A stretch of 64,000 nt of DNA. It comes from an uncultured Bacilli bacterium. Its GTDB lineage: Bacteria; Bacillota_I; Bacilli_A; RF39; UBA660. The number at the start of each line of letters is the position of its first letter. Within the stretch, counting starts at the first letter, position 1. A model generated the notes under the pieces. The model ran no database searches and had not been told where the DNA came from. It saw only the letters and a program-made list of their open reading frames with translations. This document shows, piece by piece, positions 2,352 to 54,762 of this stretch. A program made the position numbers and the translations under genes. Where the stretch lies: positions 27,069 through 91,068 of the forward strand of contig CAKOLD010000001.1 in NCBI GenBank assembly GCA_934096015.1. Direction: 5' to 3'.

Positions 2352-3376
2352 CTCTTACGTCCCGCTTCTCTTGTCTTTCCATAATTTGTTATAAAAAATG
2401 CTCTAATATTATCCAAATATTTAGGATCATTTTTTGGGACTTCTCCATAATAACTCATTTTTTGGATAGTTTCAAGTCGTTTATCTAATTCAACATATCC
2501 TAAAACTTCATAGCCAAGTCCTTTACTTAAGTTTGTAACTTCAACCCCATGTGCTTTTAAAATTTCCACATTACTTTTTAGCAAGTCTTTATTTACCACA
2601 AAAACATTACCACAATATTCAATCATAGTTGGAACATCTAACCCAAAACTATGTATCTCATTTACTAATGATTCCAAATCACTAGTAAGAAGTATTACAG
2701 GTTTATTAATAATTACATTCCTAACATTAACATTATTTTCCTCTAATATTTTTAAATTTTTTAAAAACAAATCATAATTCCCCGGAATTTCTTCTGGAGT
2801 ATTTTTCATAAAAATAGCTGGAATAGACTCAATAGCTTTTCCAAGACACCTTCCATCAATCACTCCATCATTCCTAAAAACATCAACAATATCTCCTATC
2901 AATTTTTTGTTTGAAAACATTAAAATATTTAAAATAATATTAGGATCAGATAATCTATTAATTATTCTATTTTCAGGTTTCTTAGAATTCTTGATAAACT
3001 TAGCAGTTTGTTCAACTTCTTTCAAACTTTTAACATTTTTCATATAATTCAAATTTGTTTCACTTAAATCACCAGATTCAATACCAAGATAACTTAATAT
3101 ATCAGACCAAGTAATTTCATTTTTAGGAGAAACATTAGTTTTCTCAGTTACATAATGTTCTTGTAACCCTAAGAGTTTAACATTATATACAGCAATTTCA
3201 TACATTATTTGATATAAAAAAGAATCAATTTCATTTATTTCACTCTTTTTAGCCACTTGCTCAATACAATTTATATCGGAAGCATTAATTATTTCATTCG
3301 AGTTTACTTTATTAACCAAATAATTTATTTCTGGTGTATATAACTTAGATAATAAATTTAATAAATTCTCAGACAT
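2342..3376 (-). CDS. hypothetical protein with mTERF-like helical repeats (N-terminal portion)
   Basis: The 344 aa ORF has repeats such as NLKILEENNVNVRNVIINKPVILLTSDLESLVNEIHSFGLDVPTMIEY and LLKSNVEILKAHGVEVTNL. Its C-terminal tail ...TREAGRKRCA looks like out-of-frame read-through into the next ORF. Confidence 0.4.
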   Translation of the reverse strand: MSENLLNLLSKLYTPEINYLVNKVNSNEIINASDINCIEQVAKKSEINEIDSFLYQIMYEIAVYNVKLLGLQEHYVTEKTNVSPKNEITWSDILSYLGIESGDLSETNLNYMKNVKSLKEVEQTAKFIKNSKKPENRIINRLSDPNIILNILMFSNKKLIGDIVDVFRNDGVIDGRCLGKAIESIPAIFMKNTPEEIPGNYDLFLKNLKILEENNVNVRNVIINKPVILLTSDLESLVNEIHSFGLDVPTMIEYCGNVFVVNKDLLKSNVEILKAHGVEVTNLSKGLGYEVLGYVELDKRLETIQKMSYYGEVPKNDPKYLDNIRAFFITNYGKTREAGRKRCA

Positions 3377-4036: not shown

Positions 4037-4149
4037 TTATACCATACTTATTAATATAATACAAACAAATATTCAATATACAAAAACTTTATAAAATTGT
4101 AAAATAAACAAATATGTGATATATTTAAAAAAAATAAAGAGGTGATTTT

Positions 4150-4362
4150 ATGGATAACAAAGAATACAACATCGATATTGAAAATACTAATATAATTCCA
4201 ATACCTGAAGAGGCCAGAAAATTACTTAATACAGAATCAAATAAAAGTAATAATTACGAAAAAAAATTAACAAAAAAGAATTGTATTATTTTAGTAGTTT
4301 TATTCATGGTATTAGTAGTTACAATAACTAGTGTTATTTATAAAATGATAATTGCTAAATGA
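4150..4362 (+). CDS. small membrane protein (70 aa, one C-terminal TM helix)
   Basis: Strong RBS AAAGAGGTGA lies 5 nt upstream of the ATG. It has a hydrophobic C-terminus ILVVLFMVLVVTITSVIY. Its stop overlaps the start of the next ORF (ATGA). Confidence 0.35.
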   Translation: MDNKEYNIDIENTNIIPIPEEARKLLNTESNKSNNYEKKLTKKNCIILVVLFMVLVVTITSVIYKMIIAK

Positions 4363-4613
4363 AAGAACTTGAATATTATGTAAAGAACATAAGTAAAGAC
4401 TATCAACTTAAAAAAGTCAACAAAAATCTTCTATTAACAAACTATGAAATAAATGTTTTAAAAAAATATAATATTAGTTACAACACATGTAATTCGTATA
4501 ATGAAATTTTATATTTAATTGATATCATTTTAAACAATGATTATTTAAAAGATTTAGAAGACATATCAATAAGTATTAGTGAAAGAAATTACTATCAAAA
4601 CACAAACAAATAG
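4359..4613 (+). CDS. hypothetical small protein (84 aa)
   Basis: Translationally coupled to 4150..4362 and followed by a terminator hairpin. Confidence 0.25.
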   Translation: MKELEYYVKNISKDYQLKKVNKNLLLTNYEINVLKKYNISYNTCNSYNEILYLIDIILNNDYLKDLEDISISISERNYYQNTNK

Positions 4614-14768: not shown

Positions 14769-15698
14769 TCAATTTCCTTCTTTTTTTACAAACAATTCAT
14801 CATTATATGTCGTCGGCATAAGAATTTCAAAATCATTAATAATAGAAACAGTATAATTTAACTTAGATCTATCCAATTTTTCACCATCTATACACCAACT
14901 TTTATCTGGATAATTAGCAAATTTTAATTTAATTTTATCAGTTTTATAAAATTCCAATCCAGAAACTTTATTAATATCATTTGTAGTTAATAATTTTAAA
15001 GTCCTAATAATATCAATTCTATTTCTAAAATTGCATAATAACACTTCAAATTCATTATCATCCAGTTTAACATCTTTATAAAAATTATTTATTCCAGCTA
15101 TTCTGTTAGCATTACTAATTAACATAAAAGAATAATAACCAGTTTTTTCAATTCCATTAATTTCATAAGTTAAATTATATAATTTTACCGGTTTAAAAAA
15201 ATCTTTTATACCCTCTATTAAATAAGCCAAATAGCCAATTTTCTTTTTTAAATATCTTGGAGTTTCATAAGCAACGGTTACAAATTTTCCCAATCCTGCA
15301 ACATATACAAATGGTCTATCATTTATAGAACATATATCAATTTTTTTAACTTCACCGTTTAAAGCAAGGAGTAAATTTTTTTGGAAATTTTTTGTATAAC
15401 CAAACATTTTTCCTACATCATTAGTAGTTCCAACGGGAATGTGGCATACAATTAATCTATCTTTTCTAAGCAAATTACCTGTTACAACTTCATTAAAAGT
15501 TCCATCTCCACCTATAGAAAAAACAACATCAACTTTATCTAAGTGACTTACTATTTCCTTAGCATGGCCAGCATATTTAGTAGGAATAAATTTTGGTAAA
15601 TAATTAAATTTACTCAAATATTTTTTACAAAGTTTTAAATTATCTTTATTTAAGGTGTGTCCGCTATTAGGGTTGTATATGACTACACATGTTTTCAT
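14769..15698 (-). CDS. dagK: diacylglycerol/lipid kinase (DagK/YegS family)
   Basis: MKTCVVIYNPNSG...GGDGTFNEVV is the DAGK catalytic motif. The start is taken at the internal Met with a GGTGAT RBS. Confidence 0.8.
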   Translation of the reverse strand: MKTCVVIYNPNSGHTLNKDNLKLCKKYLSKFNYLPKFIPTKYAGHAKEIVSHLDKVDVVFSIGGDGTFNEVVTGNLLRKDRLIVCHIPVGTTNDVGKMFGYTKNFQKNLLLALNGEVKKIDICSINDRPFVYVAGLGKFVTVAYETPRYLKKKIGYLAYLIEGIKDFFKPVKLYNLTYEINGIEKTGYYSFMLISNANRIAGINNFYKDVKLDDNEFEVLLCNFRNRIDIIRTLKLLTTNDINKVSGLEFYKTDKIKLKFANYPDKSWCIDGEKLDRSKLNYTVSIINDFEILMPTTYNDELFVKKEGN

Positions 15699-15775
15699 TT
15701 GTATCACCACGTAAATTATAAATTTCATTTTTTAATAAGTCAAACATTTTCGGTTAATAGCCGTAATCTTTTTAT

Positions 15776-16921
15776 TTGCAAAACATAAAATGTAAAGAAG
15801 GGAGTAAATCATTGAATAATTGTGATATAAGAAAAAATCCATCATGTTGTAATAATTTTCCTAATCCTCAAATAGGACCTACGGGACCTACAGGGCCTTT
15901 TGGACCAACAGGTCCTCAAGGTATTCAAGGCATTCAAGGTATTCCAGGAGAAACTGGACCTACGGGACCTCAAGGTATTCAAGGAATCCAGGGTATTCAA
16001 GGTATTCCGGGAGCTGTTGGAGCAACAGGACCTACGGGACCAACGGGACCTCAAGGAACTGCTGGAACTCAAGGAGTTACTGGTCCGACTGGACCTCAGG
16101 GAGAAACAGGACCTACGGGACCAACGGGACCTCAAGGAACTGCTGGAACTCAAGGAGCTACTGGTCCGACTGGACCTCAGGGAGAAACAGGACCAACGGG
16201 GCCAACAGGTCCTCAAGGAATAACCGGAACTCAAGGAGTCACCGGTCCGACTGGGCCTACGGGGCCAACGGGCCCAACAGGCCCTGCTGGAACTGCAGAT
16301 ACCATAAGTATAGGAAATGTAGAAACTGGAGACGCAGGAACTGCAGCACAAATAACAGACACTGGAAGTGGAACTAATCACATTTTAAATTTTGTGATTC
16401 CTAAAGGCACTACTGAAACTACACAACGTAATGCCTACCTGGTTACATTTAATGAAAACAATCAAAATCCAATAGATGTATTAAGCAACAACAAAATTCC
16501 ACTTACAAAAAAAGAAATAGATATAACAAATATAGTAACTCTAGACCCAACAGATAATACAATTCAATTTAATGTTCCGGGGTACTATCAAATCAATTTT
16601 ACTGCTTTTGCATATGCAAGTGATAATGGAAGAGATTTTGATCAAACAAAAGATTTTGTATCTATCGGATTAAGAACGGCTGGTACAGACGACATATATG
16701 TTGGTGCTAGTAAATGGACAAATTCAACAATAGCCACTGAAATAACGGGCCAAGGAATAATTTCAGTACCAGATATTTCTACTCCATTTGAATTAGTAAA
16801 CTTAAGCCCTAGTACTATTCACTTAACAAGTCCAGATATGAATTATATTAAATCAAGTTCATATTTTACAAACCCACTAGTAACTATTACAATTGAATAC
16901 TTAGGAAGACAAAATATATAA
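15776..16921 (+). CDS. BclA-like collagen-triple-helix repeat protein (exosporium/surface glycoprotein candidate)
   Basis: The N-terminal region is followed by about 150 residues of G-X-Y repeats dominated by GPT/GPQ/GIQ triplets. The C-terminal domain of about 200 aa is non-collagenous and beta-rich. The likely start is the TTG at 15812, downstream of a GAAGGGAG RBS. Confidence 0.7.
16028..16207 (+). repeat. tandem 90-nt direct duplication inside the collagen-like region (30-aa unit [16 protein letters not shown](V/A)[13 protein letters not shown])
   Basis: Two near-identical 90-nt units with 1-2 mismatches can be read directly at 16028-16117 and 16118-16207. Confidence 0.8.
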
Positions 16922-16965
16922 AAGAGTTTTTAACTCTTTTTTAAAATAAAGAAAGGAAATTTTAA

Positions 16966-18036
16966 ATGAAAATATGTGTTTACGCCATCGCTAAAAATGA
17001 AGAACAATTTGTTGATAGATGGTACAACTCAATGAAGGAAGCAGATGAAATATATGTACTTGATACAGGTTCCACAGATAATACGGTTAAATTATTAAAA
17101 GATAAAGGAGTAATTGTAAAAATTAAAGAAATAAATCCTTGGAGATTCGATACTGCCAGAATTGAATCTTTAAAAATGGTTCCTGAAAATACCGATTTAT
17201 GTGTATGTACTGATTTAGATGAAATATTTCGTCCTGGTTGGAGAAAAGAATTAGAAAAATTGTACACAGGAAAAACAAGAGTAAGATATAATTACAATTG
17301 GAGTTTAAAAAATAATAAACCATTAGTAAATTTTTATTTAGATAACATTCATGTAAGAAAAGGATATACATGGACTCACCCAGTTCACGAGGTATTAACA
17401 AACACGGCCGACAATGAAACATTTGACACAATTCCAACTATAATATTAGATCATTACCCTGATTCAAAAAAATCAAGAAAATCATATTTAAAATTACTTG
17501 AATTATCCGTTAAAGAAGATCCTGAAGATGACAGAAATATGCATTACTTGGGAAGAGAATACATGTATTATCAAAAATATGATAAATGTATTAAAACTTT
17601 AAAAAAACATTTAAACCTTGAAAGTTCTAAGTGGAAAGATGAAAGAAGTGCTTCGATGAGATTTATTGCTAGAAGTTATATAGCTAAAAATAAAAACAAT
17701 CTAGCTATAAAATGGTACCAAAAAGCAATCAACGAAACACCATACTTAAGAGAGCCATTAATTGAACTAGCAATGTTATATTATAATGAAAAAAAATATT
17801 ATGAGATGCTAGATCTACTAATCAAAGCCAAAACAATTAAAAATAAAAACAAAACTTATATTAATGAACCATTTGCTTGGGATTCCACTTTAGATGATTT
17901 ATTAAGTCTAGCATATTATTACTTAGGACTATATGAAGAAAGCATTTTTTATATAAATAAAGCCTTAAAAATCGATCCTAATAATGAAAGACTTAAAGAA
18001 AATAAAAAAATATTTTTAAACTCTCAAAATCAATAA
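16966..18036 (+). CDS. family-2 glycosyltransferase with C-terminal TPR repeats
   Basis: N-terminus ICVYAIAKNEEQFVDRWYNSMKEADEIYVLDTGSTDNTV is a GT2 (GT-A fold) motif. C-terminal TPR-like repeats include YLGREYMYYQKYDKCIKTL and AIKWYQKAIN. It lies directly downstream of the collagen-like gene. Confidence 0.7.
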   Translation: MKICVYAIAKNEEQFVDRWYNSMKEADEIYVLDTGSTDNTVKLLKDKGVIVKIKEINPWRFDTARIESLKMVPENTDLCVCTDLDEIFRPGWRKELEKLYTGKTRVRYNYNWSLKNNKPLVNFYLDNIHVRKGYTWTHPVHEVLTNTADNETFDTIPTIILDHYPDSKKSRKSYLKLLELSVKEDPEDDRNMHYLGREYMYYQKYDKCIKTLKKHLNLESSKWKDERSASMRFIARSYIAKNKNNLAIKWYQKAINETPYLREPLIELAMLYYNEKKYYEMLDLLIKAKTIKNKNKTYINEPFAWDSTLDDLLSLAYYYLGLYEESIFYINKALKIDPNNERLKENKKIFLNSQNQ

Positions 18037-18192
18037 TTTATTATTACTTACAACCGTATTATTAAAAAAGTAGATTCAAAGTTTCTGCTTTTTTTATTTA
18101 TAAATAATAATTTTTTAGTAGCATATTAAAAATATTTTTAACATAAAATACAAAGTAATAACATATTTCTTCAATCATTTAAAGTATTTGAA

Positions 18193-18221
18193 TTGACAAA
18201 AATAACATCTTAGTGTAAAAT
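18193..18221 (+). promoter_or_regulatory. candidate sigma-A promoter for tRNA-Cys (TTGACA, 17 nt spacer, TAAAAT)
   Basis: -35 TTGACA at 18193-18198 and -10 TAAAAT at 18216-18221 are separated by 17 nt. They sit about 25 nt upstream of the tRNA 5' end. Confidence 0.35.
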
Positions 18222-18246
18222 TAATTTACATGGATTAATTAGAAAT

Positions 18247-18321
18247 GGGTCTATAGCCAAGTGGTAAGGCATGGGACTGCAACTCCCTGATTCGTTGGTT
18301 CAAATCCGACTAGGCCCTCCA
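18247..18321 (+). tRNA. tRNA-Cys (anticodon GCA)
   Basis: Acceptor stem GGGTCTA/TAGGCCC, discriminator T and encoded CCA. D-loop AGCCAAGTGGTAAGGC. Anticodon loop CTGCAAC. T-arm GGTTCAAATCC. Confidence 0.85.
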
Positions 18322-21920: not shown

Positions 21921-22273
21921 TGGTGGAGCCGAGCGGAATCGAACCGCTGTCCAAAATAACTTCAAAATAACGTCTACAGGTTTAGTTAGAATTAAAATTT
22001 CATTAATAAAAAAGTATCTAACAAACTATTTATTAACTAAGTTTATAAATTATTCATTTTTTAATCTAAACAAATTAAAAAATATATCTTGTATATATGA
22101 ACCAAATATTAATCTACAAGAAAACCAATATTCAGCGCCAAAATTGCTAAATTAAGCAAATGCTAAGGCAGTATTATAATTATTGTCAGTTAATTTAAAC
22201 TGTGCTACTTAGGATTAGCTACCACCTGCAATTAAATCAAAACATTATTCTGTCGAAACCAATAAACGGCCCC
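21921..22273 (-). ncRNA. ssrA: tmRNA (ssrA), about 353 nt
   Basis: Minus strand 5' end is GGGGCCGUUUAUUGGUUUCGACAG. The 3' end GGUUCGAUUCCGCUCGGCUCCACCA gives a tRNA-Ala-like acceptor/T-arm. The internal tag reading frame GCA CAG UUU AAA UUA ACU GAC AAU AAU UAU AAU ACU GCC UUA GCA UUU GCU UAA gives the tag AQFKLTDNNYNTALAFA. Confidence 0.85.
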
Positions 22274-27125: not shown

Positions 27126-28280
27126 TTATTCATCAATAGGTAAAGAAACATTTTTATTTTCTACAATCCCATCAAAATATTTATAACTCATTGAGATAGT
27201 TCTATTAACCAAATTTCCCAATATATTTGCTAAATCAGAATTATTTCTTTCTATTATCAAATCTTCTGTAATAACTCCATCATCTGCAAAAGGAATTTCA
27301 TGAAGTACAAAATATCTTATAGTATCTACCCCATATTTATTAACCAACTCATCAGCATACAAAATATTTCCTTTACTTTTGCTCATTTTGTCACCACCAG
27401 AAAGTAACCACGGATGTCCAAAAACTTGTTTAGGTAAAGGTAAATCCAAAGCCATTAAAATTATTGGCCAATAAATAGTATGAAATCTAATAATATCTTT
27501 ACCAATTAAATGTAAATCCGCAGGCCATAATTTTTTGAATTCATCAGTAATAGAATCAGTATCATATCCAATATTAGTAATATAATTAGTAAGCGCATCT
27601 AACCAAACATAGATAATATGTTTTTTATCAAAAGTTACTGGGATCCCCCATTTAAAAGAAGTTCTAGATACACATAAATCTTGCAAACCAGGTTTTAAAA
27701 AATTATTAATCATTTCGTTCTTTCTTGATTCTGGTTGTATAAATTCATTGTGATTTTCAATATATTCAATTAACCTGTCTTGATACTTTGATAATTTAAA
27801 AAAATAAGCTTCTTCACTCTTTTTACTTACATCACGTCCACAATCAGGGCATTTACCATTAATTAATTGAGTTTCTGTAAAAAATGATTCACAAGGAACA
27901 CAATACCATCCTTCATATTTTGATAAATAAATATCTCCTTGTTCATATAATTTATTAAATATTTTTTGAACTTTTTCTTCATGTTGTTTATCAGTAGTCC
28001 TAACAAAACGATTATAAGTTGTATTCATTAAATCCCAAATATTCTTAATTTCATCAGCAACTTTATCCACATATGTTTGTGGTGTTACACCAGCTTCTTT
28101 TGCTTTTAATTCAATTTTTTCTCCATGTTCATCAGTACCAGTCTGAAAATAAACGTCATATCCTTCTAATCTCTTATTTCTTGCTATAGCATCTGCCAAA
28201 ACTATTTCATATGTATTACCAATATGTGGTTTACTAGATGTATAAGCTATTGCAGTAGAAATATAATATTTTTCTTTCAT
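27126..28280 (-). CDS. metG: methionyl-tRNA synthetase, catalytic N-terminal portion (HIGH and KMSKS motifs)
   Basis: PHIGNTYEIVLADAIAR is the HIGH region. Zn knuckle CPDCG. KMSKSKGN. It ends with TAA at 27126-27128, 15 codons before the in-frame downstream fragment. Confidence 0.85.
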   Translation of the reverse strand: MKEKYYISTAIAYTSSKPHIGNTYEIVLADAIARNKRLEGYDVYFQTGTDEHGEKIELKAKEAGVTPQTYVDKVADEIKNIWDLMNTTYNRFVRTTDKQHEEKVQKIFNKLYEQGDIYLSKYEGWYCVPCESFFTETQLINGKCPDCGRDVSKKSEEAYFFKLSKYQDRLIEYIENHNEFIQPESRKNEMINNFLKPGLQDLCVSRTSFKWGIPVTFDKKHIIYVWLDALTNYITNIGYDTDSITDEFKKLWPADLHLIGKDIIRFHTIYWPIILMALDLPLPKQVFGHPWLLSGGDKMSKSKGNILYADELVNKYGVDTIRYFVLHEIPFADDGVITEDLIIERNNSDLANILGNLVNRTISMSYKYFDGIVENKNVSLPIDE

Positions 28281-28283
28281 TTA

Positions 28284-28530
28284 AATTTCTCCTTCCATAA
28301 TAAAAAACATGAACAAAAGGACGAAAAAATTCCGCGATACCACCTTTATTCATGTTTTAGCATGCTCTCAAATTTTTAACGCAATTAACGATTTAAACTC
28401 CAGAACCATGTTCATTGTTTTTTTATAATTCTCTTTCACCATTTAAGAACTCTCTAAATATAAAGCCACAATTACTCTTTCCTTCTTCGTCTAACAAGTG
28501 TATTCTAACATAATATTATTTTTTATACAA
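28284..28530 (-). promoter_or_regulatory. T-box riboswitch leader (Met specifier) upstream of metG
   Basis: Minus-strand T-box sequence AAAGGUGGUAUCGCGGAA (plus 28330-28348). Intrinsic terminator ACAUGAAUAAAGG...CCUUUUGUUCAUGU plus U-run overlaps the antiterminator. AG-box GAAAGAGUA. Candidate specifier AUG-A in CAAUGAACAUGG. Confidence 0.7.
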
Positions 28531-36163: not shown

Positions 36164-37732
36164 CTAATTAATTTCTATTATATCACCAAAAACTTCTTTT
36201 GCATCTTGTTCTACAGAATCTAACGTGCCATCCTGTTTTTGCTCGTCTTCTTCAATATAATGATCATATTTATTTTTATTGACAATATAATCTTTTTTTA
36301 TTTTATTACATTCTTCAGTAAATAAACAAATAAATTTATATGTCTTATTTTCAATTTTCTCAAATTCTCGTTCTAACAAATTTAAATTATTATTAAAAAT
36401 AATGCTATCACTTTGTATATCGGTGGAAAAAATAACATTACTATCACTAACTACTTCCACAGTAGCAGAATTAACATAACCAAGCAAATTATAATTATTA
36501 TATTCGCCTAATTTATAAATGAAATCTTTCCAATATTCACAAAATTGTTGTTTTAAAGATTTTTGAGCTCCATAAAAAGCATTATTAATTCTTATAAATA
36601 AAAAATTATCATCAATTTTATTAGTTTTTATTTCCCGGGAAATATTTTTTTCTACTTTTTTTTGGGAAATATTTTCTTTTTTTGCTATTTTAGGCTGATT
36701 TCCTTGAAAATATGTTAAAAATGAAATCAATAATAAATTATAAGCATTTTCCACTAATTTCAACTTTGTCTCTATATCAAATAAATCATCTATTATTTTT
36801 TTACAAAAATCAAAATCGTAATCAACATCATCATTACCTTTTTTTATACTTATACTCTGATCAATCAAATATGACAACATTTCATCAACTAAAGAATTAA
36901 TATCAATTCCTTGAATTTGTATTTCTTGAAAAATTTTTAAAAATTCTTCTATATCATTTTCATAAATAGCCTTAATTATTTTATCAATATACTGATTAGA
37001 AACTAATCCAAATGTTTCATTAATAATTTCTACTGTTATATTATTTGTAATTTTTGACAATTGATCAAGATAACTTAAACAATCACGTAAACAACCATCT
37101 GACATTGTAGCTAACAAATCTACAGAAGCATCATCAATGTCTATATTCTCTTTTTCAGCAATAAATAAAAGATGTTCTCTTATTTCTGAATTAGTCAATT
37201 TTTTAAAATCAAAACGTTGACAACGCGATAGCACAGTTATAGGTACCTTTTGAATATCAGTAGTAGCAAAAATAAAAATAACGTGCGCTGGAGGTTCCTC
37301 TAAGGTCTTCAAAAATGCATTCCAAGCACTATTAGACAACATATGAACTTCATCAATAATATAAATCTTATATTTAGACATAGATGGCACTAACTTTACA
37401 TTATTTCTGATTTCTCTTATTTCATCAACACCATTATTGCTGGCCGCATCAATTTCAATAATATCTGGATTTTCAGAAAAATTTAAACAATTCTTACATT
37501 TGCCACAACTATCCCCATTAACTGGAGAAAGACAATTCAAAACCTTAGCAAATATTTTTGCAGTACTTGTTTTACCAGTTCCTCTTGGACCAGTAAATAT
37601 ATATGCATGTGCAATTTTATCTTTTACAATAGAACCAATAAGAGTCTCTTTTACAAATTCTTGACCCACTAATTCCCTAAAATTTTGTGGTCTATATTTT
37701 CTATATAAAACTTTATAACCCATTCTAACCAC
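36164..37732 (-). CDS. dnaX: DNA polymerase III subunit gamma/tau
   Basis: YRKYRPQNFRELVGQE...HAYIFTGPRGTGKTSTAKIFAK are AAA+ clamp-loader motifs. 522 aa. Confidence 0.9.
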   Translation of the reverse strand: MVRMGYKVLYRKYRPQNFRELVGQEFVKETLIGSIVKDKIAHAYIFTGPRGTGKTSTAKIFAKVLNCLSPVNGDSCGKCKNCLNFSENPDIIEIDAASNNGVDEIREIRNNVKLVPSMSKYKIYIIDEVHMLSNSAWNAFLKTLEEPPAHVIFIFATTDIQKVPITVLSRCQRFDFKKLTNSEIREHLLFIAEKENIDIDDASVDLLATMSDGCLRDCLSYLDQLSKITNNITVEIINETFGLVSNQYIDKIIKAIYENDIEEFLKIFQEIQIQGIDINSLVDEMLSYLIDQSISIKKGNDDVDYDFDFCKKIIDDLFDIETKLKLVENAYNLLLISFLTYFQGNQPKIAKKENISQKKVEKNISREIKTNKIDDNFLFIRINNAFYGAQKSLKQQFCEYWKDFIYKLGEYNNYNLLGYVNSATVEVVSDSNVIFSTDIQSDSIIFNNNLNLLEREFEKIENKTYKFICLFTEECNKIKKDYIVNKNKYDHYIEEDEQKQDGTLDSVEQDAKEVFGDIIEIN

Positions 37733-37768: not shown

Positions 37769-38191
37769 TTATCTCCTTTTTTTAAAAAAATCAGTTAAAA
37801 TTTGCTTAAATTTTTGTTCCCAAATATCTTTATTTTGTAATTTTTCAAAATTTGTCTTTTGGTAACCTAATTTATTATCATCCCTTTTTACCAAATAATA
37901 AACATTTTTTAATCTAGCCTCTTTTATTACAGTTTTACACATTTCACATGGTTCCAAAGTCACCAGTAAAGAATATTCTGACAAATACTTGCTTTTCAAA
38001 CATTTGTTCGCTTTAATTATTGCTAATATTTCTGCATGATACAATATATTATTAGATTTTTCGCGTTTATTATAAGCCTTTGAAATTATCTTTCCACTTG
38101 ATTCATCATAAACAATTGCTGCAACAGGAACCTCTTTATTTTTCGACGCCCTATTACACAATTTATATAAATAATTAAAATACCTTTCCAT
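37769..38191 (-). CDS. tadA: tRNA-specific adenosine deaminase TadA
   Basis: HAEILAI ... PCEMC are the zinc ligands. The start is taken at MERYFNY, since the upstream Met would overlap the SRP RNA. Confidence 0.8.
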   Translation of the reverse strand: MERYFNYLYKLCNRASKNKEVPVAAIVYDESSGKIISKAYNKREKSNNILYHAEILAIIKANKCLKSKYLSEYSLLVTLEPCEMCKTVIKEARLKNVYYLVKRDDNKLGYQKTNFEKLQNKDIWEQKFKQILTDFFKKRR

Positions 38192-38212
38192 TATAAACAT
38201 CCTTTTACTAAT

Positions 38213-38292
38213 AAAAAAAGCGCACATCAACAGAGGTTGTTATGGCTGCTGTCTTCCGACTCTGACCAGGTTTCAACTTATCAATTGCGCAA
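38213..38292 (-). ncRNA. ffs: small SRP RNA (4.5S/scRNA-type, ffs)
   Basis: Minus-strand ACCUGGUCAGAGUCGGAAGACAGCAGCC matches conserved domain IV, including the GGAA tetraloop. It is closed by the GCGCA/UGCGC helix and followed by a U-tract. The tadA-scr-dnaX position is conserved with B. subtilis. Confidence 0.6.
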
Positions 38293-38333
38293 ATAAATTA
38301 TAACAAATTTAAAGTTAGTTAACAACCCTATGG

Positions 38334-38591
38334 TTATCCACAATGTTTCACGTGAAACATAAAAAAATCTTCACTTGTTTTTTTCACAATAAATTAATGT
38401 TTTTACACATATAGATGCATTTTAACTAGTTTCAATTATTATTTTATAATTTATATATAGTTATTCACCAACTATATTAATTTATATTTATATTTATATT
38501 TATTAAAACCATTAAAAAGTTTTCCACAATGTTTCACGTGAAACATTGTAATTTTGGTTTGCTATTAATTATATTGTTTCACGTGAAACAT
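38334..38591 (+). repeat. non-coding module downstream of gyrA: DnaA-box-like 9-mers, (TTTATA)x4 tandem hexamers and three copies of an 18-bp palindrome ATGTTTCACGTGAAACAT
   Basis: TTATCCACA at 38334-38342 abuts palindrome copy 1 (38343-38360). TTTTCCACA at 38520-38528 abuts copy 2 (38529-38546). Copy 3 lies at 38574-38591 and is 17/18 palindromic. Degenerate boxes TTTTTCACA, TTTTACACA and TTATTCACC lie between. (TTTATA)4 is at 38481-38504. Confidence 0.6.
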
Positions 38592-38604: not shown

Positions 38605-41055
38605 TTACTCTTCTTCTTGATCGCTATTATCAGTAGTTTCTTCGTAATGCGATACAACACTTATTGCTGATACACTTTGTGAATCTTTTAAATTTATTAA
38701 TTTAACACCTTGAGTTACTCTGCCAAGTTGAGATATTTGATCAATTGGCAAACGAATAACTATTCCTGAATCAGTAATAATCATTAAATCCTGATCATCA
38801 TCTACAATCTTGAATGCAATTAAATTACCATTCTTTTCAGTAATACTTAAAGCCTTAACACCTTTACTTCCGCGTTTAGTCTTTCTATATTCTGATAATA
38901 CTGTTTTTTTACCATATCCATTTTTTGTAACAATTAAAATGTTATTAGAATCATCTGCTACATCTAATCCTATACATAAAGATGAATCTAAATTAATTCC
39001 TTTAACTCCAGAAGCTGTTCTTCCCATAACACGAATTTCATCTTCGTTAAATATTACCATTCTTCCTTCACTAGAAGCTAAAATAATGTTATTATCACCA
39101 GTCGTTTTTCTAACACCAATTAATTCATCATTATCTTTCAACGAAATTGCTATTTTTCCTGAAGTTCTTATATTATCAAAATCTTCTATTCTTGTTTTCT
39201 TTACCAAACCTCGCTTCGTTGCAAATAGTAAATATTTATAAGAATCATCATTATTTGTTAATTTTACCATAGAATTGATAGTCTCATCTTTTTCTATTTG
39301 TAATAAATTGATTATAGGTAATCCTTTTGATTGTCTAGAATATTCAGGGACTTCATATCCTTTCAATCTATATACTTTACCCTTATTAGTAAAGAACAAT
39401 AAGTAATCATGTGTTGATAAGTTTATCATTTGTTCAGCAAAATCTTCATCATTGGTTGACATTCCCTTTACACCGACTCCACCTCTATTTTGCGATTTAA
39501 ATGTATCAACAGTTGTTCTTTTTATATATCCTTTATTTGTTAGAACAATCATAACGCTTTCTTCAGGAATCAAAGATTCATCTTCAATATAATCAATTGC
39601 TGTCATATCAATCTCTGTTTTTCTATCATCTCCAAATTTGTCTTTAATTTCTAACATTTCTTGTTTAATTATTGCTAAAACCTTATTATCATCACTTAAA
39701 ATACCTCTTAAACGATCAATTTCTTTTAATAAAGCTTCTAATTCTTCCTCAATTTTAGCTCTTTCCAAACCAGTTAAACGCCTTAGTTTTAACTCTAATA
39801 TTGCATTACATTGAATATCATCTAGATTGAAACGTTCCATTAATTTAGTTTTAGCATCAACATCTGCTTCAGCTTCCCTAATAATACTAATAACCTCATC
39901 TAAGTTATCTAATGCGATTTTATATCCATTCAAAACGTGGACTCTATTTTCAGCTTTATTAAGTTCAAACTTTGTCCTTCTGATAATTACGCTTTTTTGA
40001 TAATCAATATATTTAGCAATGATATCTTTTAATCCTAAAGTCTTTGGTTGCCCATCATCAAGCATTAATAAATTAATACCATAACTTGTTTGTAACTGAG
40101 TATGTTTATATAAATTATTTAAAACAACATTGGCATTAGCTTCTCTTTTTAAAGTAATTACTACTTTAACACCATTTTTTTGATTAGACTCATCATGTAA
40201 ATCAGCAATACCATCTATTTGTTTTTCACGTACTAACTCACCAATACGTTCAATAAACATTTTTTTATTAACTTGATAAGGAATTTCTCTTACAATTAAT
40301 CTATTTTTCCCATTATGTTCTTCAACATCAACCTTTCCTCTAATTGTAATTGAACCTTTACCAGTTTCATATGCTTTCTTAATTCCTGAATTTCCTAAAA
40401 TTTTTGCACCTGTAGGAAAATCTGGACCTTTAATATATTGCATTAATCCTAATGTATCAATTTCCGGATTATCAATATACGCAACACAACCATCAATAAC
40501 CTCTTCTAGATTATGAGGAGGAATATTTGTAGCCATACCCACAGCGATTCCCATAGTTCCGTTTACTAAAATATTAGGAAATTTACAAGGCAAAACAACA
40601 GGTTCTTCTCTAACATTATCAAAATTAGGTCTAAAATCAACAGTATCTTTATTAATATCTCTTAAAAGTTCTAAAGAAATTTTAGATAATCTTGCTTCTG
40701 TATAACGATATGCCGCTGCTGAGTCACCATCTATTGAACCAAAATTACCATGTCCATCTATCAAAACATATCTATAACTAAAATCCTGCGCCATTCTAAC
40801 CATAGCATCATAAACCGAAGAATCTCCATGTGGATGATATTTACCTAAAACGGCTCCGACAGTAGTTGCACTTTTTCTGAAAGGTTTATCAGGTGTTAAA
40901 CCATCCTCATACATGGTATAAAGTATTCTTCTATGAACTGGTTTTAAGCCATCTCGTAAATCAGGTAATGCTCTAGCTACAATTACACTCATCGAATAAT
41001 ACAAAAAAGAATTTTCTATTTCATCTACAATATTTTTCTGTCTTAATTTATCCAT
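38605..41055 (-). CDS. gyrA: DNA gyrase subunit A
   Basis: [26 protein letters not shown] ... YHPHGD. 816 aa. Confidence 0.97.
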
Positions 41056-44163: not shown

Positions 44164-44625
44164 TCATTTTTCTCCTCTTCTTTTTCTTAAAACATATTCC
44201 AATCTATTAGCTTTTAATATTTGATTATTTAAAACATTGTAACTTAAAGAAAATTCCAAACTTTCTTCATTTAAAAACTGTACAATACTTTTATTTTGGT
44301 CTTTATCAAAATAATATTTATCTATATTATTCAAACTTATCCAAGCACACTGTTTTAAACGAGGAGAAGTTGTTGGAAAAAAGACAATAGGATTATTTTC
44401 CTCTACTATTATGGGAGCTTTATAACTAATTCCAATTAAAGAATCTGTTCCTTTTATTCTTCCATTCATAGAACTTCCATAATATTTACAATTAAAATCC
44501 ATTATCTTATTTGGTTTACTATCAACCAAAAAGCAATCATCCTCTTCATATACTAAAGACTTTTTTTCTCCACATGGAATTATAGCCAATGTTTTTTTTG
44601 AAATAGAATAATTTTTCATATTCAC
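44164..44625 (-). CDS. comK: ComK-family protein (competence transcription factor homolog)
   Basis: LAIIPCGEKKSLVYEEDDCFLVDSKPNKIMDFNCKYYGSSMNGRIKGTDSLIGISYKAPIIVEENNPIVFFPTTSPRLKQCAWISLNNI aligns along its length with B. subtilis ComK (AVLPEEIDGK..CSKIIEKDCVFYV...SCRFFGSSYAGRKAGTYEVTKISHKPPIMVDPSNQIFLFPTLSSTRPQCGWISHVHV). Confidence 0.7.
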   Translation of the reverse strand: MNMKNYSISKKTLAIIPCGEKKSLVYEEDDCFLVDSKPNKIMDFNCKYYGSSMNGRIKGTDSLIGISYKAPIIVEENNPIVFFPTTSPRLKQCAWISLNNIDKYYFDKDQNKSIVQFLNEESLEFSLSYNVLNNQILKANRLEYVLRKRRGEK

Positions 44626-45835: not shown

Positions 45836-45957
45836 TTTTATTCCTTCTTTCTTATATAAGTATTATCTTTATTATTAGCGTGTAAAATGTTGAAAAATGT
45901 ATTAATTACCTAAAACAAAAGTAAAAGTGTTTGTTAATAAATATTTAATTATCCACA

Positions 45958-47316: not shown

Positions 47317-47616
47317 CCCGCATTCATGACACCTTTTTCTACAGATAATTTTAAACTACTTTTTCACAAAATAAAAGACAAAATTTTTAAAATTTGCAAA
47401 ATCCACAAAATATCAACATAATTTTCAACACACAACATCACTAAATAAGCTAAAAAACAAACTTTTCAACATTTTCCACAAATTGAAATTCACATCAATA
47501 TTAAAATTTCCACAATTAACGTTTAAAAATAAATTAAAATAAAAATCAAAATAAAATTGACATCTAAAGAGTAATGTTGTAGAATAAAGTAGCTAAAAAG
47601 AGGTGGAGGTGTCAAA
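47317..47616 (+). promoter_or_regulatory. dnaA-rpmH intergenic region: oriC-type cluster of co-oriented DnaA-box-like 9-mers (TTNTCCACA variants) plus dnaA/rpmH promoters
   Basis: AAATCCACA at 47399-47407, TTTTCCACA at 47472-47480, ATTTCCACA at 47506-47514 and TTTTTCACA at about 47360. The background is very AT-rich. A perfect TTATCCACA also sits at 45949-45957 in the dnaA-dnaN spacer. Confidence 0.5.
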
Positions 47617-47739
47617 ATGAAAAGAACTTATCAACCAAATAATCGTAAAAAGAGTAAAAAACATGGTTTTTTTGCTAGAAAAGTAACGAATATTTTAAAA
47701 AATAGAAGAAAAAAAGGACGTAAACGTTTATGCAAATAA
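47617..47739 (+). CDS. rpmH: 50S ribosomal protein L34
   Basis: [54 protein letters not shown]. Below the ORF-track length cut-off. Confidence 0.9.
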
Positions 47740-49671: not shown

Positions 49672-49747
49672 TTCTTCTTTTTTACATGTCAAATTATTTC
49701 CCGGGAAATAATTATGTGCTATAATACATTAACGAAAGGAAAAAAAT

Positions 49748-53736: not shown

Positions 53737-54762
53737 ATGAAAGTTGAACCTCAAATACAATTTATAAATGTAATGGACATTATTCCAAATAGATTTCAAC
53801 CAAGACTAACTTTTGACGAAAAGGCACTTCAAGAATTAGCATCTTCAATAAAAGAACATGGTATAATTCAACCACTTGTTTTAAGAAGATTAGGCGATAA
53901 ATATGAGATAATTGCTGGAGAAAGAAGATATAAAGCATCCCAAATAGCTGGATTAAACCAAGTCCCTGCAATAATTACTCAAATGGATGATAACAAAAGT
54001 GCAGAAGTTGCCATAGTTGAAAATTTACAAAGAAAAAATTTATCAGCAATAGAAGAAGCTAAATCTTATAAAAAATTATTAGATAGAGGTTATCTAACTC
54101 AAGAAGAGTTAGCAAAAAAGATGGGAATATCTCAATCAGCTATTGCTAATAAAGTTAGATTATTGAATTTAACCAACGAAGTTCAAAATGCATTAATAGA
54201 AGAAAAAATAAGTGAAAGACATGCCAGAAGTTTACTTCAAATAAGTGATCCAGAAAAACAAAAAGAAATGCTAAACAAAATAATAAATGGTAGATGGACA
54301 GTAAGACAATTAGATGAAGAAATTAAAAAGATAAAACCAGTTGTTGAAAAACAACTACCTCCAGAGCCAGCTTTTGTACCATTAAAAGAAGAAAAATCTA
54401 ATAATATATCTACATTGATCCAAGAAGATGATGATATGAAAGAATTGGCAAGACAGATAGAAGCCTTAAATAAATCAATAGGAATAACGTCAGATACTAA
54501 CTATGAAACATTCAATATTCCAACGGCTGAAGAATTAAATAAACCAGCTACTGAAATACCAACACTTCCTAAAAAAGAACCAATAATCGCACCATCACCA
54601 GAGCCAGTAAAGCCAAAGAAAATAGAAGTTGGAAATATAGAAAGTGCAGTTAAATCAATAAGAGAAATAGCAAAAGAAATAGAAGAAGCAAAATTTAAAA
54701 TTGAAACTGAAGAATTTGATTTTGAAGATCTTTATCAAATAATAATTAAAATTGAAAAATAG
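53737..54762 (+). CDS. parB: ParB/Spo0J/Noc-family DNA-binding protein with an atypical proline-rich C-terminal extension
   Basis: ParB-box IIAGERRYKAS. HTH LTQEELAKKMGISQSAIANKVRLL. The C-terminal 140 aa (KPVVEKQLPPEPAFVPL...EPIIAPSPEPVKPKK) is unlike the canonical Spo0J dimerisation domain. No ParA/Soj gene is adjacent. Confidence 0.75.
   Translation: MKVEPQIQFINVMDIIPNRFQPRLTFDEKALQELASSIKEHGIIQPLVLRRLGDKYEIIAGERRYKASQIAGLNQVPAIITQMDDNKSAEVAIVENLQRKNLSAIEEAKSYKKLLDRGYLTQEELAKKMGISQSAIANKVRLLNLTNEVQNALIEEKISERHARSLLQISDPEKQKEMLNKIINGRWTVRQLDEEIKKIKPVVEKQLPPEPAFVPLKEEKSNNISTLIQEDDDMKELARQIEALNKSIGITSDTNYETFNIPTAEELNKPATEIPTLPKKEPIIAPSPEPVKPKKIEVGNIESAVKSIREIAKEIEEAKFKIETEEFDFEDLYQIIIKIEK

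Follow-up and report, generated by a model that had tools for sequence, protein, structure and literature searches.

The 64,000-nucleotide stretch analysed here, hereafter the window, comes from an uncultured Bacilli bacterium (GCA_934096015.1, contig CAKOLD010000001.1, positions 27,069 to 91,068 of the forward strand) and carries three perfect copies of parS, the palindrome bound by ParB (Spo0J), in the spacer that follows gyrA. Two of the three copies are separated by a single nucleotide (nt) from a box for the initiator DnaA. We consider it likely that this cluster is a genuine chromosomal parS centromere, situated about 9 kb left of the replication origin oriC at a spacer conserved throughout the clade, that its ParB is encoded outside the window, that it is coupled to DnaA, and that a Noc-type paralogue of ParB encoded in the window acts separately. 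The identification of the sites as parS, made from the letters of the DNA in the original prediction, is correct and ordinary when taken alone; what is unusual is the arrangement of the centromere. New features are the tight and oriented composite of DnaA box and parS and, at the level of the clade, the packing of parS, DnaA box and Noc site beside a Noc paralogue that lacks its membrane anchor.

The 16-mer TGTTTCACGTGAAACA has exactly three exact matches in the window, against an expectation of 0.04 from dinucleotide shuffles, and all three copies agree in every position with the parS palindrome TGTTNCACGTGAAACA. This bears out the claim that the repeated palindrome is canonical parS. No further match was present in the 64 kb at up to two mismatches, and at three mismatches a single weak extra match was found at position 3056. 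All three sites lie in the 303-bp spacer between gyrA and a gene for the small RNA of the signal recognition particle (SRP), packed into 247 bp and 7.4-9 kb from dnaA. With a copy number far above chance at this distance, the description of three origin-proximal parS sites between gyrA and tadA also holds. Independent assemblies (contigs from other samples) contain this spacer without a single base difference, which shows that the cluster is not an assembly artefact; one same-species contig stops exactly at parS1, as expected of a repeated palindrome. Such contigs were obtained by an exact-protein look-up. The nearest GTDB or metagenome matches found with the pattern or GyrA scans described below had 73% nucleotide and 70% protein identity, and the same species was absent among them.

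The locus was compared with that of relatives in two samples. A pattern scan of 185,579 species genomes (GTDB) for the DnaA box TTATCCACA, a gap of 0-6 nt and parS gave 77 loci, about 44 of which (roughly 40 genomes) belong to uncultured Bacilli of low G+C content (GC) that are labelled Bacilli, Tenericutes, 'Mycoplasma sp. CAG:776' or 'Clostridium sp. CAG:710'. The pattern match in these ~44 loci falls in the same position, in the order gyrA-[spacer]-tadA-dnaX. The regions downstream of gyrA from 37 related genomes (59-69% identity in the C-terminal part of GyrA) and from the window itself, 38 altogether, contain 160 parS sites with at most one mismatch, 1-12 in each region and spread over 0.2-1.4 kb. 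Because the GTDB set had been selected for the composite of box and parS, a second, unbiased sample was drawn, consisting of metagenome contigs with a GyrA C-terminal domain regardless of parS. At least two parS sites follow gyrA in 23 of its 28 distinct downstream sequences, with 123 sites in total. Dispersal of the 16-mer at high copy number was not seen: in the window as well as in all relatives examined, every parS is located in the gyrA-tadA spacer.

Across the relatives the base preceding the 16-mer is an A in 93-98% of the parS flanks, so the site used in this clade is effectively the 18-bp palindrome ATGTTTCACGTGAAACAT. The sequence between the sites is unalignable across species, with 38-41% identity compared to 37% expected from composition. 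Exact sites amid flanks at random level indicate selection on the sites, and as judged from sequence the three copies in the window are a small version of a clade-wide centromere locus. More extended forms exist: L016, L025 and L011 have 9-12 perfect parS within about 1.2 kb downstream of gyrA, and L100 (4772-5308) possesses a true tandem parS array of 84 bp x 6.4 copies.

The statement that two of the parS sites abut DnaA boxes proved accurate. One A lies between TTATCCACA and parS1 and between TTTTCCACA and parS2, and the two pairs form a 28-nt direct repeat, GTTWTCCACAATGTTTCACGTGAAACAT; the 28-bp box-parS unit of the window is GTTATCCACAATGTTTCACGTGAAACAT. With two further relaxed boxes the spacer contains four same-strand matches to TTWTNCACA within 195 bp (38334, 38380, 38401 and 38520). 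No other place in the 64 kb has boxes so densely clustered, and in none of 20,000 Markov simulations of the spacer were four same-strand boxes reached. An AT-rich stretch, ATATTTATATTTATATTTAT, is found between these boxes. By these counts the spacer appears to be a small DnaA-box cluster outside oriC.

The composite recurs among the pattern-selected genomes, about 40 in number, which contain 54 composites with a perfect box where we estimate that fewer than one would be expected. The gap is 1 nt in 31 of the 54. When boxes with up to one mismatch are counted, 40 point toward parS at a spacer of 1 nt, and at most one occurs in the reverse orientation at any offset. The flanks of the GTDB set that stand outside the selection contribute nine one-mismatch boxes at spacer 1. 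In the unbiased sample a forward box-like 9-mer is present within 0-5 nt of parS in 23 of 246 flanks, with about one expected. The numbers indicate that the orientation and spacing of the composite are non-random and that it recurs in some 40 species. A variant with one mismatch to the DnaA box, TTATCAACA, stands 1-5 nt from parS in 18 flanks (relatives L088-L112 and L165) and may be a weak box, a box in decay or some other site. Outside the clade, the same pattern is found beside soj-spo0J in Lachnospiraceae, Alphaproteobacteria and others, with 42 composites, a number near a rough chance estimate. Perfect pairs with a spacer of 1-6 nt occur there in Lachnospiraceae (L012, L031, L036, L041, L045, L046, L052 and L063) and Alphaproteobacteria (L018, L039, L040 and L055), and the 1-nt spacer is over-represented among the outside-clade composites (14/42).

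The only ParB-family gene of the window encodes a protein of 341 residues with a ParB N-terminal and a helix-turn-helix (HTH) domain and a long C-terminal linker rich in Pro, Lys and Glu. Its best NCBIfam match is Noc (TIGR04285), at 285 bits and below the cut-off of 315, and the best matches among solved structures are Noc as well. The residues at the specificity positions, in Caulobacter numbering, are Q173, K179, N184 and R201, and the pattern QK(N/K/S)R is kept in 120 of the 120 closest orthologues. It is known that ParB has R, T, A and G at these positions and Noc Q, K, K and R, that strong parS binders combine an invariable R173 with a small residue at 201 (G/S/T/C), that variants of dual specificity mostly have T or S at 201, and that with only one lysine, at either 179 or 184, Q173/R201 can already read the Noc-binding site (NBS) (PMC7383237). 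The QKNR variant is not listed in the text supplements of that study (deep-mutational data). The set of residues expected of Noc (Q173, K179 and/or K184, R201) is thus present in the window protein.

The cognate site is present as well. A perfect NBS, TATTTCCCGGGAAATA, occurs twice in the window where none is expected. The copy inside dnaX is found at an equivalent position (DnaX residues 344-402) in 34 of 73 related loci, window included, and L001 and L083-L085 likewise have the copy of the jag-mnmE spacer in that spacer. With at most one mismatch there are 81 such sites in 510 kb of low-GC loci, again including the window. In several relatives Noc sites lie inside the parS arrays, where they form a module of Noc site, 3-6 nt, DnaA box, 0-1 nt and parS. 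Nine strict modules of this type were found in five genomes, and their adjacency was not part of any selection. The modules measure about 46 bp (for example ATTTCCCGGGAAATAATTTTATCCACAATGTTTCACGTGAAACA) and were observed in L014 (3990-4860) and L080 (3370-4475), also in L056, L064 and L070, with at most three per spacer. Between the triple modules of L014 a repeated element of about 55 nt (4100-4165 and 4495-4560) with the inverted repeat TTTTGCAT...ATGCAAAA is visible, which could be a small RNA or a further binding site.

Noc carries an N-terminal amphipathic helix that targets it to the membrane (PMC8429893). No such helix was found in the window protein, which begins some 22-25 residues later than Noc of Bacillus or Geobacillus. 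The open reading frame (ORF) cannot extend upstream, and all 120 closest orthologues are equally short and share the long linker too. By its specificity residues the gene product is a Noc-type paralogue, predicted not to bind parS, but the missing helix sets it apart from a textbook Noc. Its role may be that of a clamp on the DNA of the origin region with no tether to the membrane.

The gene context defines the position of the centromere relative to the origin (Table 1). The minus strand encodes dnaA, dnaN, a comK gene, recF, gyrB, gyrA, the TadA-like deaminase, dnaX, ebfC and recR, and the plus strand, from 47618 onward, rpmH, rnpA, yidC, jag, mnmE, mnmG, rsmG and the ParB-family gene. Beside dnaA and rpmH, at 47.3-47.7 kb, there is a switch in GC skew as well as in gene orientation. 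This switch, together with the boxes in the spacers flanking dnaA, places oriC there, 7.4-9.3 kb from parS; the dnaA-rpmH spacer itself is 8.7-9.3 kb away from the sites. The SRP RNA gene between parS1 and tadA was overlooked in the original prediction, as was its promoter; of 12 relatives checked, 11 have the gene in the same place beside the array. Measured upstream from the SRP RNA start, the centre of parS1 comes at about 62 nt. The perfect DnaA box is 7 nt from the -35 hexamer of this promoter on its upstream side, with parS1 immediately beyond.

Table 1. Coordinates of the parS sites, DnaA boxes, Noc-binding sites and neighbouring features in the window (position 1 is its first letter)
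Feature	Position	Strand	Remarks
parS1	38344-38359		perfect TGTTTCACGTGAAACA; with flanking A/T an 18-bp palindrome, ATGTTTCACGTGAAACAT
parS2	38530-38545		perfect 16-mer within a 24-bp palindrome, ACAATGTTTCACGTGAAACATTGT (38526-38549)
parS3	38575-38590		perfect 16-mer; starts 14 nt past the gyrA stop codon
Perfect DnaA box, TTATCCACA	38334-38342	+	1 nt from parS1
DnaA box, TTTTCCACA	38520-38528	+	fits TTWTNCACA; 1 nt from parS2
Relaxed DnaA box, TTTTTCACA	38380-38388	+	same strand as the boxes next to parS
Relaxed DnaA box, TTTTACACA	38401-38409	+	same strand as the boxes next to parS
gyrA	38605-41055	-	parS cluster starts directly after the stop codon
Promoter-like site for the SRP RNA gene	38297-38325	-	TTGTTA-17 nt-TATAAT, extended -10 TG
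Small SRP RNA (scr) gene	38204-38301	-	RF00169, 53.3 bits (gathering score 40)
TadA-like deaminase gene	37769-38191	-	140 residues as called on same-species contigs; followed by dnaX, ebfC, recR
Perfect Noc-binding site, TATTTCCCGGGAAATA	36629-36644		inside dnaX, 1.7 kb from parS1
Perfect Noc-binding site, TATTTCCCGGGAAATA	49695-49710		jag-mnmE spacer, ~2 kb from oriC
dnaA-dnaN spacer, presumed second part of oriC	45836-45957		AT-rich; perfect DnaA box at 45949-45957
dnaA	45958-47316	-	
dnaA-rpmH spacer, presumed oriC	47317-47617		same-strand DnaA-box-like repeats at the skew and orientation switch
ParB-family (Noc-type) gene	53737-54762	+	after rsmG; no soj or spo0J beside it

The GC of the window is about 25%, and a stretch at 15000-18300 with a GC of 0.33-0.34, plus-strand ORFs at 15776-16921 and 16966-18036 and an adjoining tRNA gene (18247-18318) may be acquired DNA. 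A transfer-messenger RNA (tmRNA) gene (21921-22273) and a T-box leader (28314-28496) upstream of an ORF resembling methionyl-tRNA synthetase (27126-28280) are ordinary. About 8 kb past the right end of the window the same-species contigs differ (L167 18523-20450 and L168 18592-20450); at that place one of them has a phage-type integrase and an AAA_25/DnaB_C-like gene and the other SIR2 and other genes, which represents a strain-variable insertion.

In view of the above, several other explanations of the cluster should be considered. The original prediction connected the parS sites to the ParB-family gene after rsmG, which would then encode an orphan ParB working without ParA. In favour of this connection, neither the window, the adjoining 10 kb nor the related loci examined contain any other gene of that family, nor do they have soj or spo0J, and the product of this gene lacks the membrane-targeting helix that defines Noc function. 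Yet the protein and all its 120 orthologues have Noc-type residues instead of the R173 and small residue 201 of strong parS binders (PMC7383237), and its presumed target is present as two perfect copies in the window and many more in the low-GC loci. Two distinct and perfectly conserved palindromes, parS and the Noc site, argue for two proteins. We regard the connection as improbable and do not retain it. A function at the RNA level, with the palindromes serving mainly as terminator hairpins for gyrA and resembling parS only secondarily, has a smaller probability still. The extended parS2 does score as a terminator-like hairpin on both strands, with the tail AAAACTTTTT, and in RNA parS3 could pair with parS2 directly downstream of gyrA, giving a 17-bp stem (-26 kcal/mol, z = -4.2) with a U-rich stretch behind it. 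However, parS1 and parS3 were not flagged in the same terminator scoring and have no downstream U tract on the gyrA strand, and the arrays reach up to 12 copies over 1.2 kb, far from any gene end. A hairpin needs no fixed loop or sequence, whereas all 16 positions, loop included, are identical in hundreds of copies across species, and on this ground termination was rejected as the main function. It may be a side function of parS2. The lowest probability is assigned to a model in which the spacer is part of the replication origin, as a second DnaA-box region with an AT-rich unwinding element. The four DnaA boxes with AT-rich sequence between them would fit, but all spacers are AT-rich in this genome, the spacers flanking dnaA hold the usual box arrays, and the switch in GC skew and gene orientation is 9 kb away and not at 38.4 kb. 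A start at 38.4 kb would put gyrA, gyrB, recF, dnaN and dnaA head-on to the fork. On skew and gene orientation a second origin at the parS spacer was rejected.

A further explanation concerns the boxes beside parS. If they were copied along with duplication of the 28-nt unit, or arose easily because the C-A-A flank of parS overlaps the 3' end of the box, the sites would be real parS with functionless neighbours. The two composites of the window are indeed one direct repeat, and the flank positions -3 to -1 are C/A/A-biased even where no box is present. On the other hand, two of the four same-strand boxes do not stand beside parS, the flanks are unrelated between species, extension of the palindrome does not account for the TTATCC half of the box, and the excess of perfect composites with strict orientation and a preference for a 1-nt gap is large. 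On balance we consider functionless boxes unlikely, though they should be taken seriously. Several observations weigh against the reading that we prefer. The frequency of composites in the GTDB set is biased, as these genomes were picked by the composite. In the unbiased sample 18 of the 23 box-like 9-mers near parS read TTATCAACA, in which a conserved C of the box is lost, a perfect box is present in only one of the 246 flanks, and the arrays contain 10 TTWTNCACA boxes where 5.4 are expected, an excess of about twofold. DnaA boxes are hence ruled out as a general feature of the clade arrays, and the function of the boxes may be lineage-specific or absent. The composite is a lineage-specific elaboration and not a defining feature of the clade centromere. 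A further point concerns the cognate protein, which is assumed and was not seen: the 64 kb window, the next 10 kb on its right and all related loci examined yielded neither a gene for a canonical ParB nor one for Soj/ParA. A tblastn search of the window and 170 loci with B. subtilis Soj and Spo0J returned only the Noc-type gene for this clade, leftward extension of the window by exact-protein look-up gave nothing new, and the neighbourhoods of two distant orthologues showed the same synteny without soj or spo0J. From this we infer that the cognate parS binder is encoded elsewhere.

A mechanism for the centromere with a ParB from outside the window and coupling to DnaA can be proposed. A canonical, parS-specific ParB would load at the three sites as clamps that depend on cytidine triphosphate (CTP) and spread over the neighbouring kilobases, including gyrAB, recF, dnaN, dnaA and oriC. 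There it would organise or segregate the origin region, probably by recruitment of SMC, as suggested by established ParB biology. By the same analogy the cluster could be a centre of ParB nucleation and condensin loading, as the original prediction proposed. A gap of 1 nt between the 9-bp box and the 18-bp palindrome leaves DnaA and ParB only mutual exclusion or contact. Either outcome would couple DnaA occupancy, for titration or for cell-cycle signalling, to centromere loading, and such coupling is the most likely role of the composite. A side effect on the adjacent promoter of SRP RNA, tadA and dnaX is possible, as is termination of the gyrA transcript by the parS2/parS3 hairpin. The Noc-type paralogue would read its own sites, which some relatives pack against the same DnaA box and parS.

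The use of head-to-tail copies as a centromere has a precedent in sopC of the F plasmid, a tandem-repeat plasmid centromere. The relatives' arrays of a ParB-family palindrome, such as the 84-bp repeats of L100, resemble it. Those of the clade differ in being chromosomal, composed of canonical chromosomal parS and mostly irregular in spacing, and the window has three irregular copies.

Among chromosomal systems the closest comparison is parS/Spo0J of B. subtilis, with which the window shares the 16-bp consensus palindrome, a small number of origin-proximal sites and the expected ParB nucleation and SMC recruitment (PMC3245932). In B. subtilis, however, eight sites are spread through the origin-proximal region and a soj-spo0J operon is located next to noc. 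In the window a single conserved spacer holds the three sites within 247 bp, the relatives reach 12 in 1.2 kb, and neither the operon nor a cognate ParB was seen in this region. B. subtilis also has DnaA-box clusters (DBCs) outside oriC, which together with Spo0J restrain initiation (PMC3245932). The gyrA-SRP RNA spacer is likewise an origin-proximal, intergenic box cluster outside oriC, but it is small (four relaxed boxes, one of them perfect) and interleaved with parS. The thdF-jag spacer of B. subtilis carries such a DnaA-box cluster, and the same spacer here (jag-mnmE) has a Noc site. The assertion that a juxtaposition of DnaA box and parS is not a described arrangement was too strong, as DnaA boxes are present in the parS region of Caulobacter (Mera et al. 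2014, as reviewed in PMC6399470). There, too, initiator sites lie inside an origin-near centromere region and link initiation to segregation, according to that review (PMC6399470). Caulobacter crescentus belongs to another phylum, and in the window the gap between box and parS is a single base with fixed orientation. The literature searched contained no account of a box-parS composite with a fixed 1-bp gap in Firmicutes.

The Noc/NBS systems of B. subtilis and S. aureus resemble the one in the window in specificity residues, in the 16-bp site and in the location of the gene after rsmG. The window protein differs in having no N-terminal membrane helix, in its N184 where Noc has K, in the greater length of the C-terminal linker and in a score below the NCBIfam cut-off (285 versus 315 bits), and Noc sites in its relatives are concentrated beside parS and DnaA boxes and not scattered. 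In S. aureus Noc restrains DnaA-dependent initiation by a route that is not known (PMC5540599). A system with parS and ParB but without ParA is found in S. pneumoniae, where, according to PMC4488948, ParB spreading from parS modulates competence genes. The likeness lies in the few origin-proximal parS of a Firmicute from which spreading reaches a competence operon; the comK gene of the window (44164-44625, between dnaN and recF) is about 6 kb from the parS cluster. The pneumococcal ParB is a known parS binder, whereas the only local ParB-family gene here is Noc-type. The position of comK is kept in L001, L083 and L085.

A more far-reaching interpretation is that the gyrA-SRP RNA spacer serves as a hub for three proteins, with ParB, the anchorless Noc paralogue and DnaA on abutting sites and with the two CTP-dependent clamps gating DnaA occupancy or being gated by it. 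We put this forward tentatively and consider it rather unlikely. Its layout is seen within about 46 bp in some species as Noc site, box and parS; the window contains the box-parS part, and its Noc site is 1.7 kb away in dnaX. If the hub exists, the availability of the initiator would be physically coupled to centromere loading, and this would provide a DNA-level mechanism for the unexplained crosstalk between Noc and DnaA in S. aureus and between Spo0J and DnaA in B. subtilis.

The results correct an annotation error that is easily made, namely to take a ParB homologue next to rsmG for the parS binder. They fix the centromere of a lineage of uncultured gut Bacilli at a set locus after gyrA. 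For the still open mechanism by which proteins of the ParB and Noc families affect DnaA in B. subtilis and S. aureus, these uncultured bacteria offer a natural module of 26-46 bp that carries all the sites.

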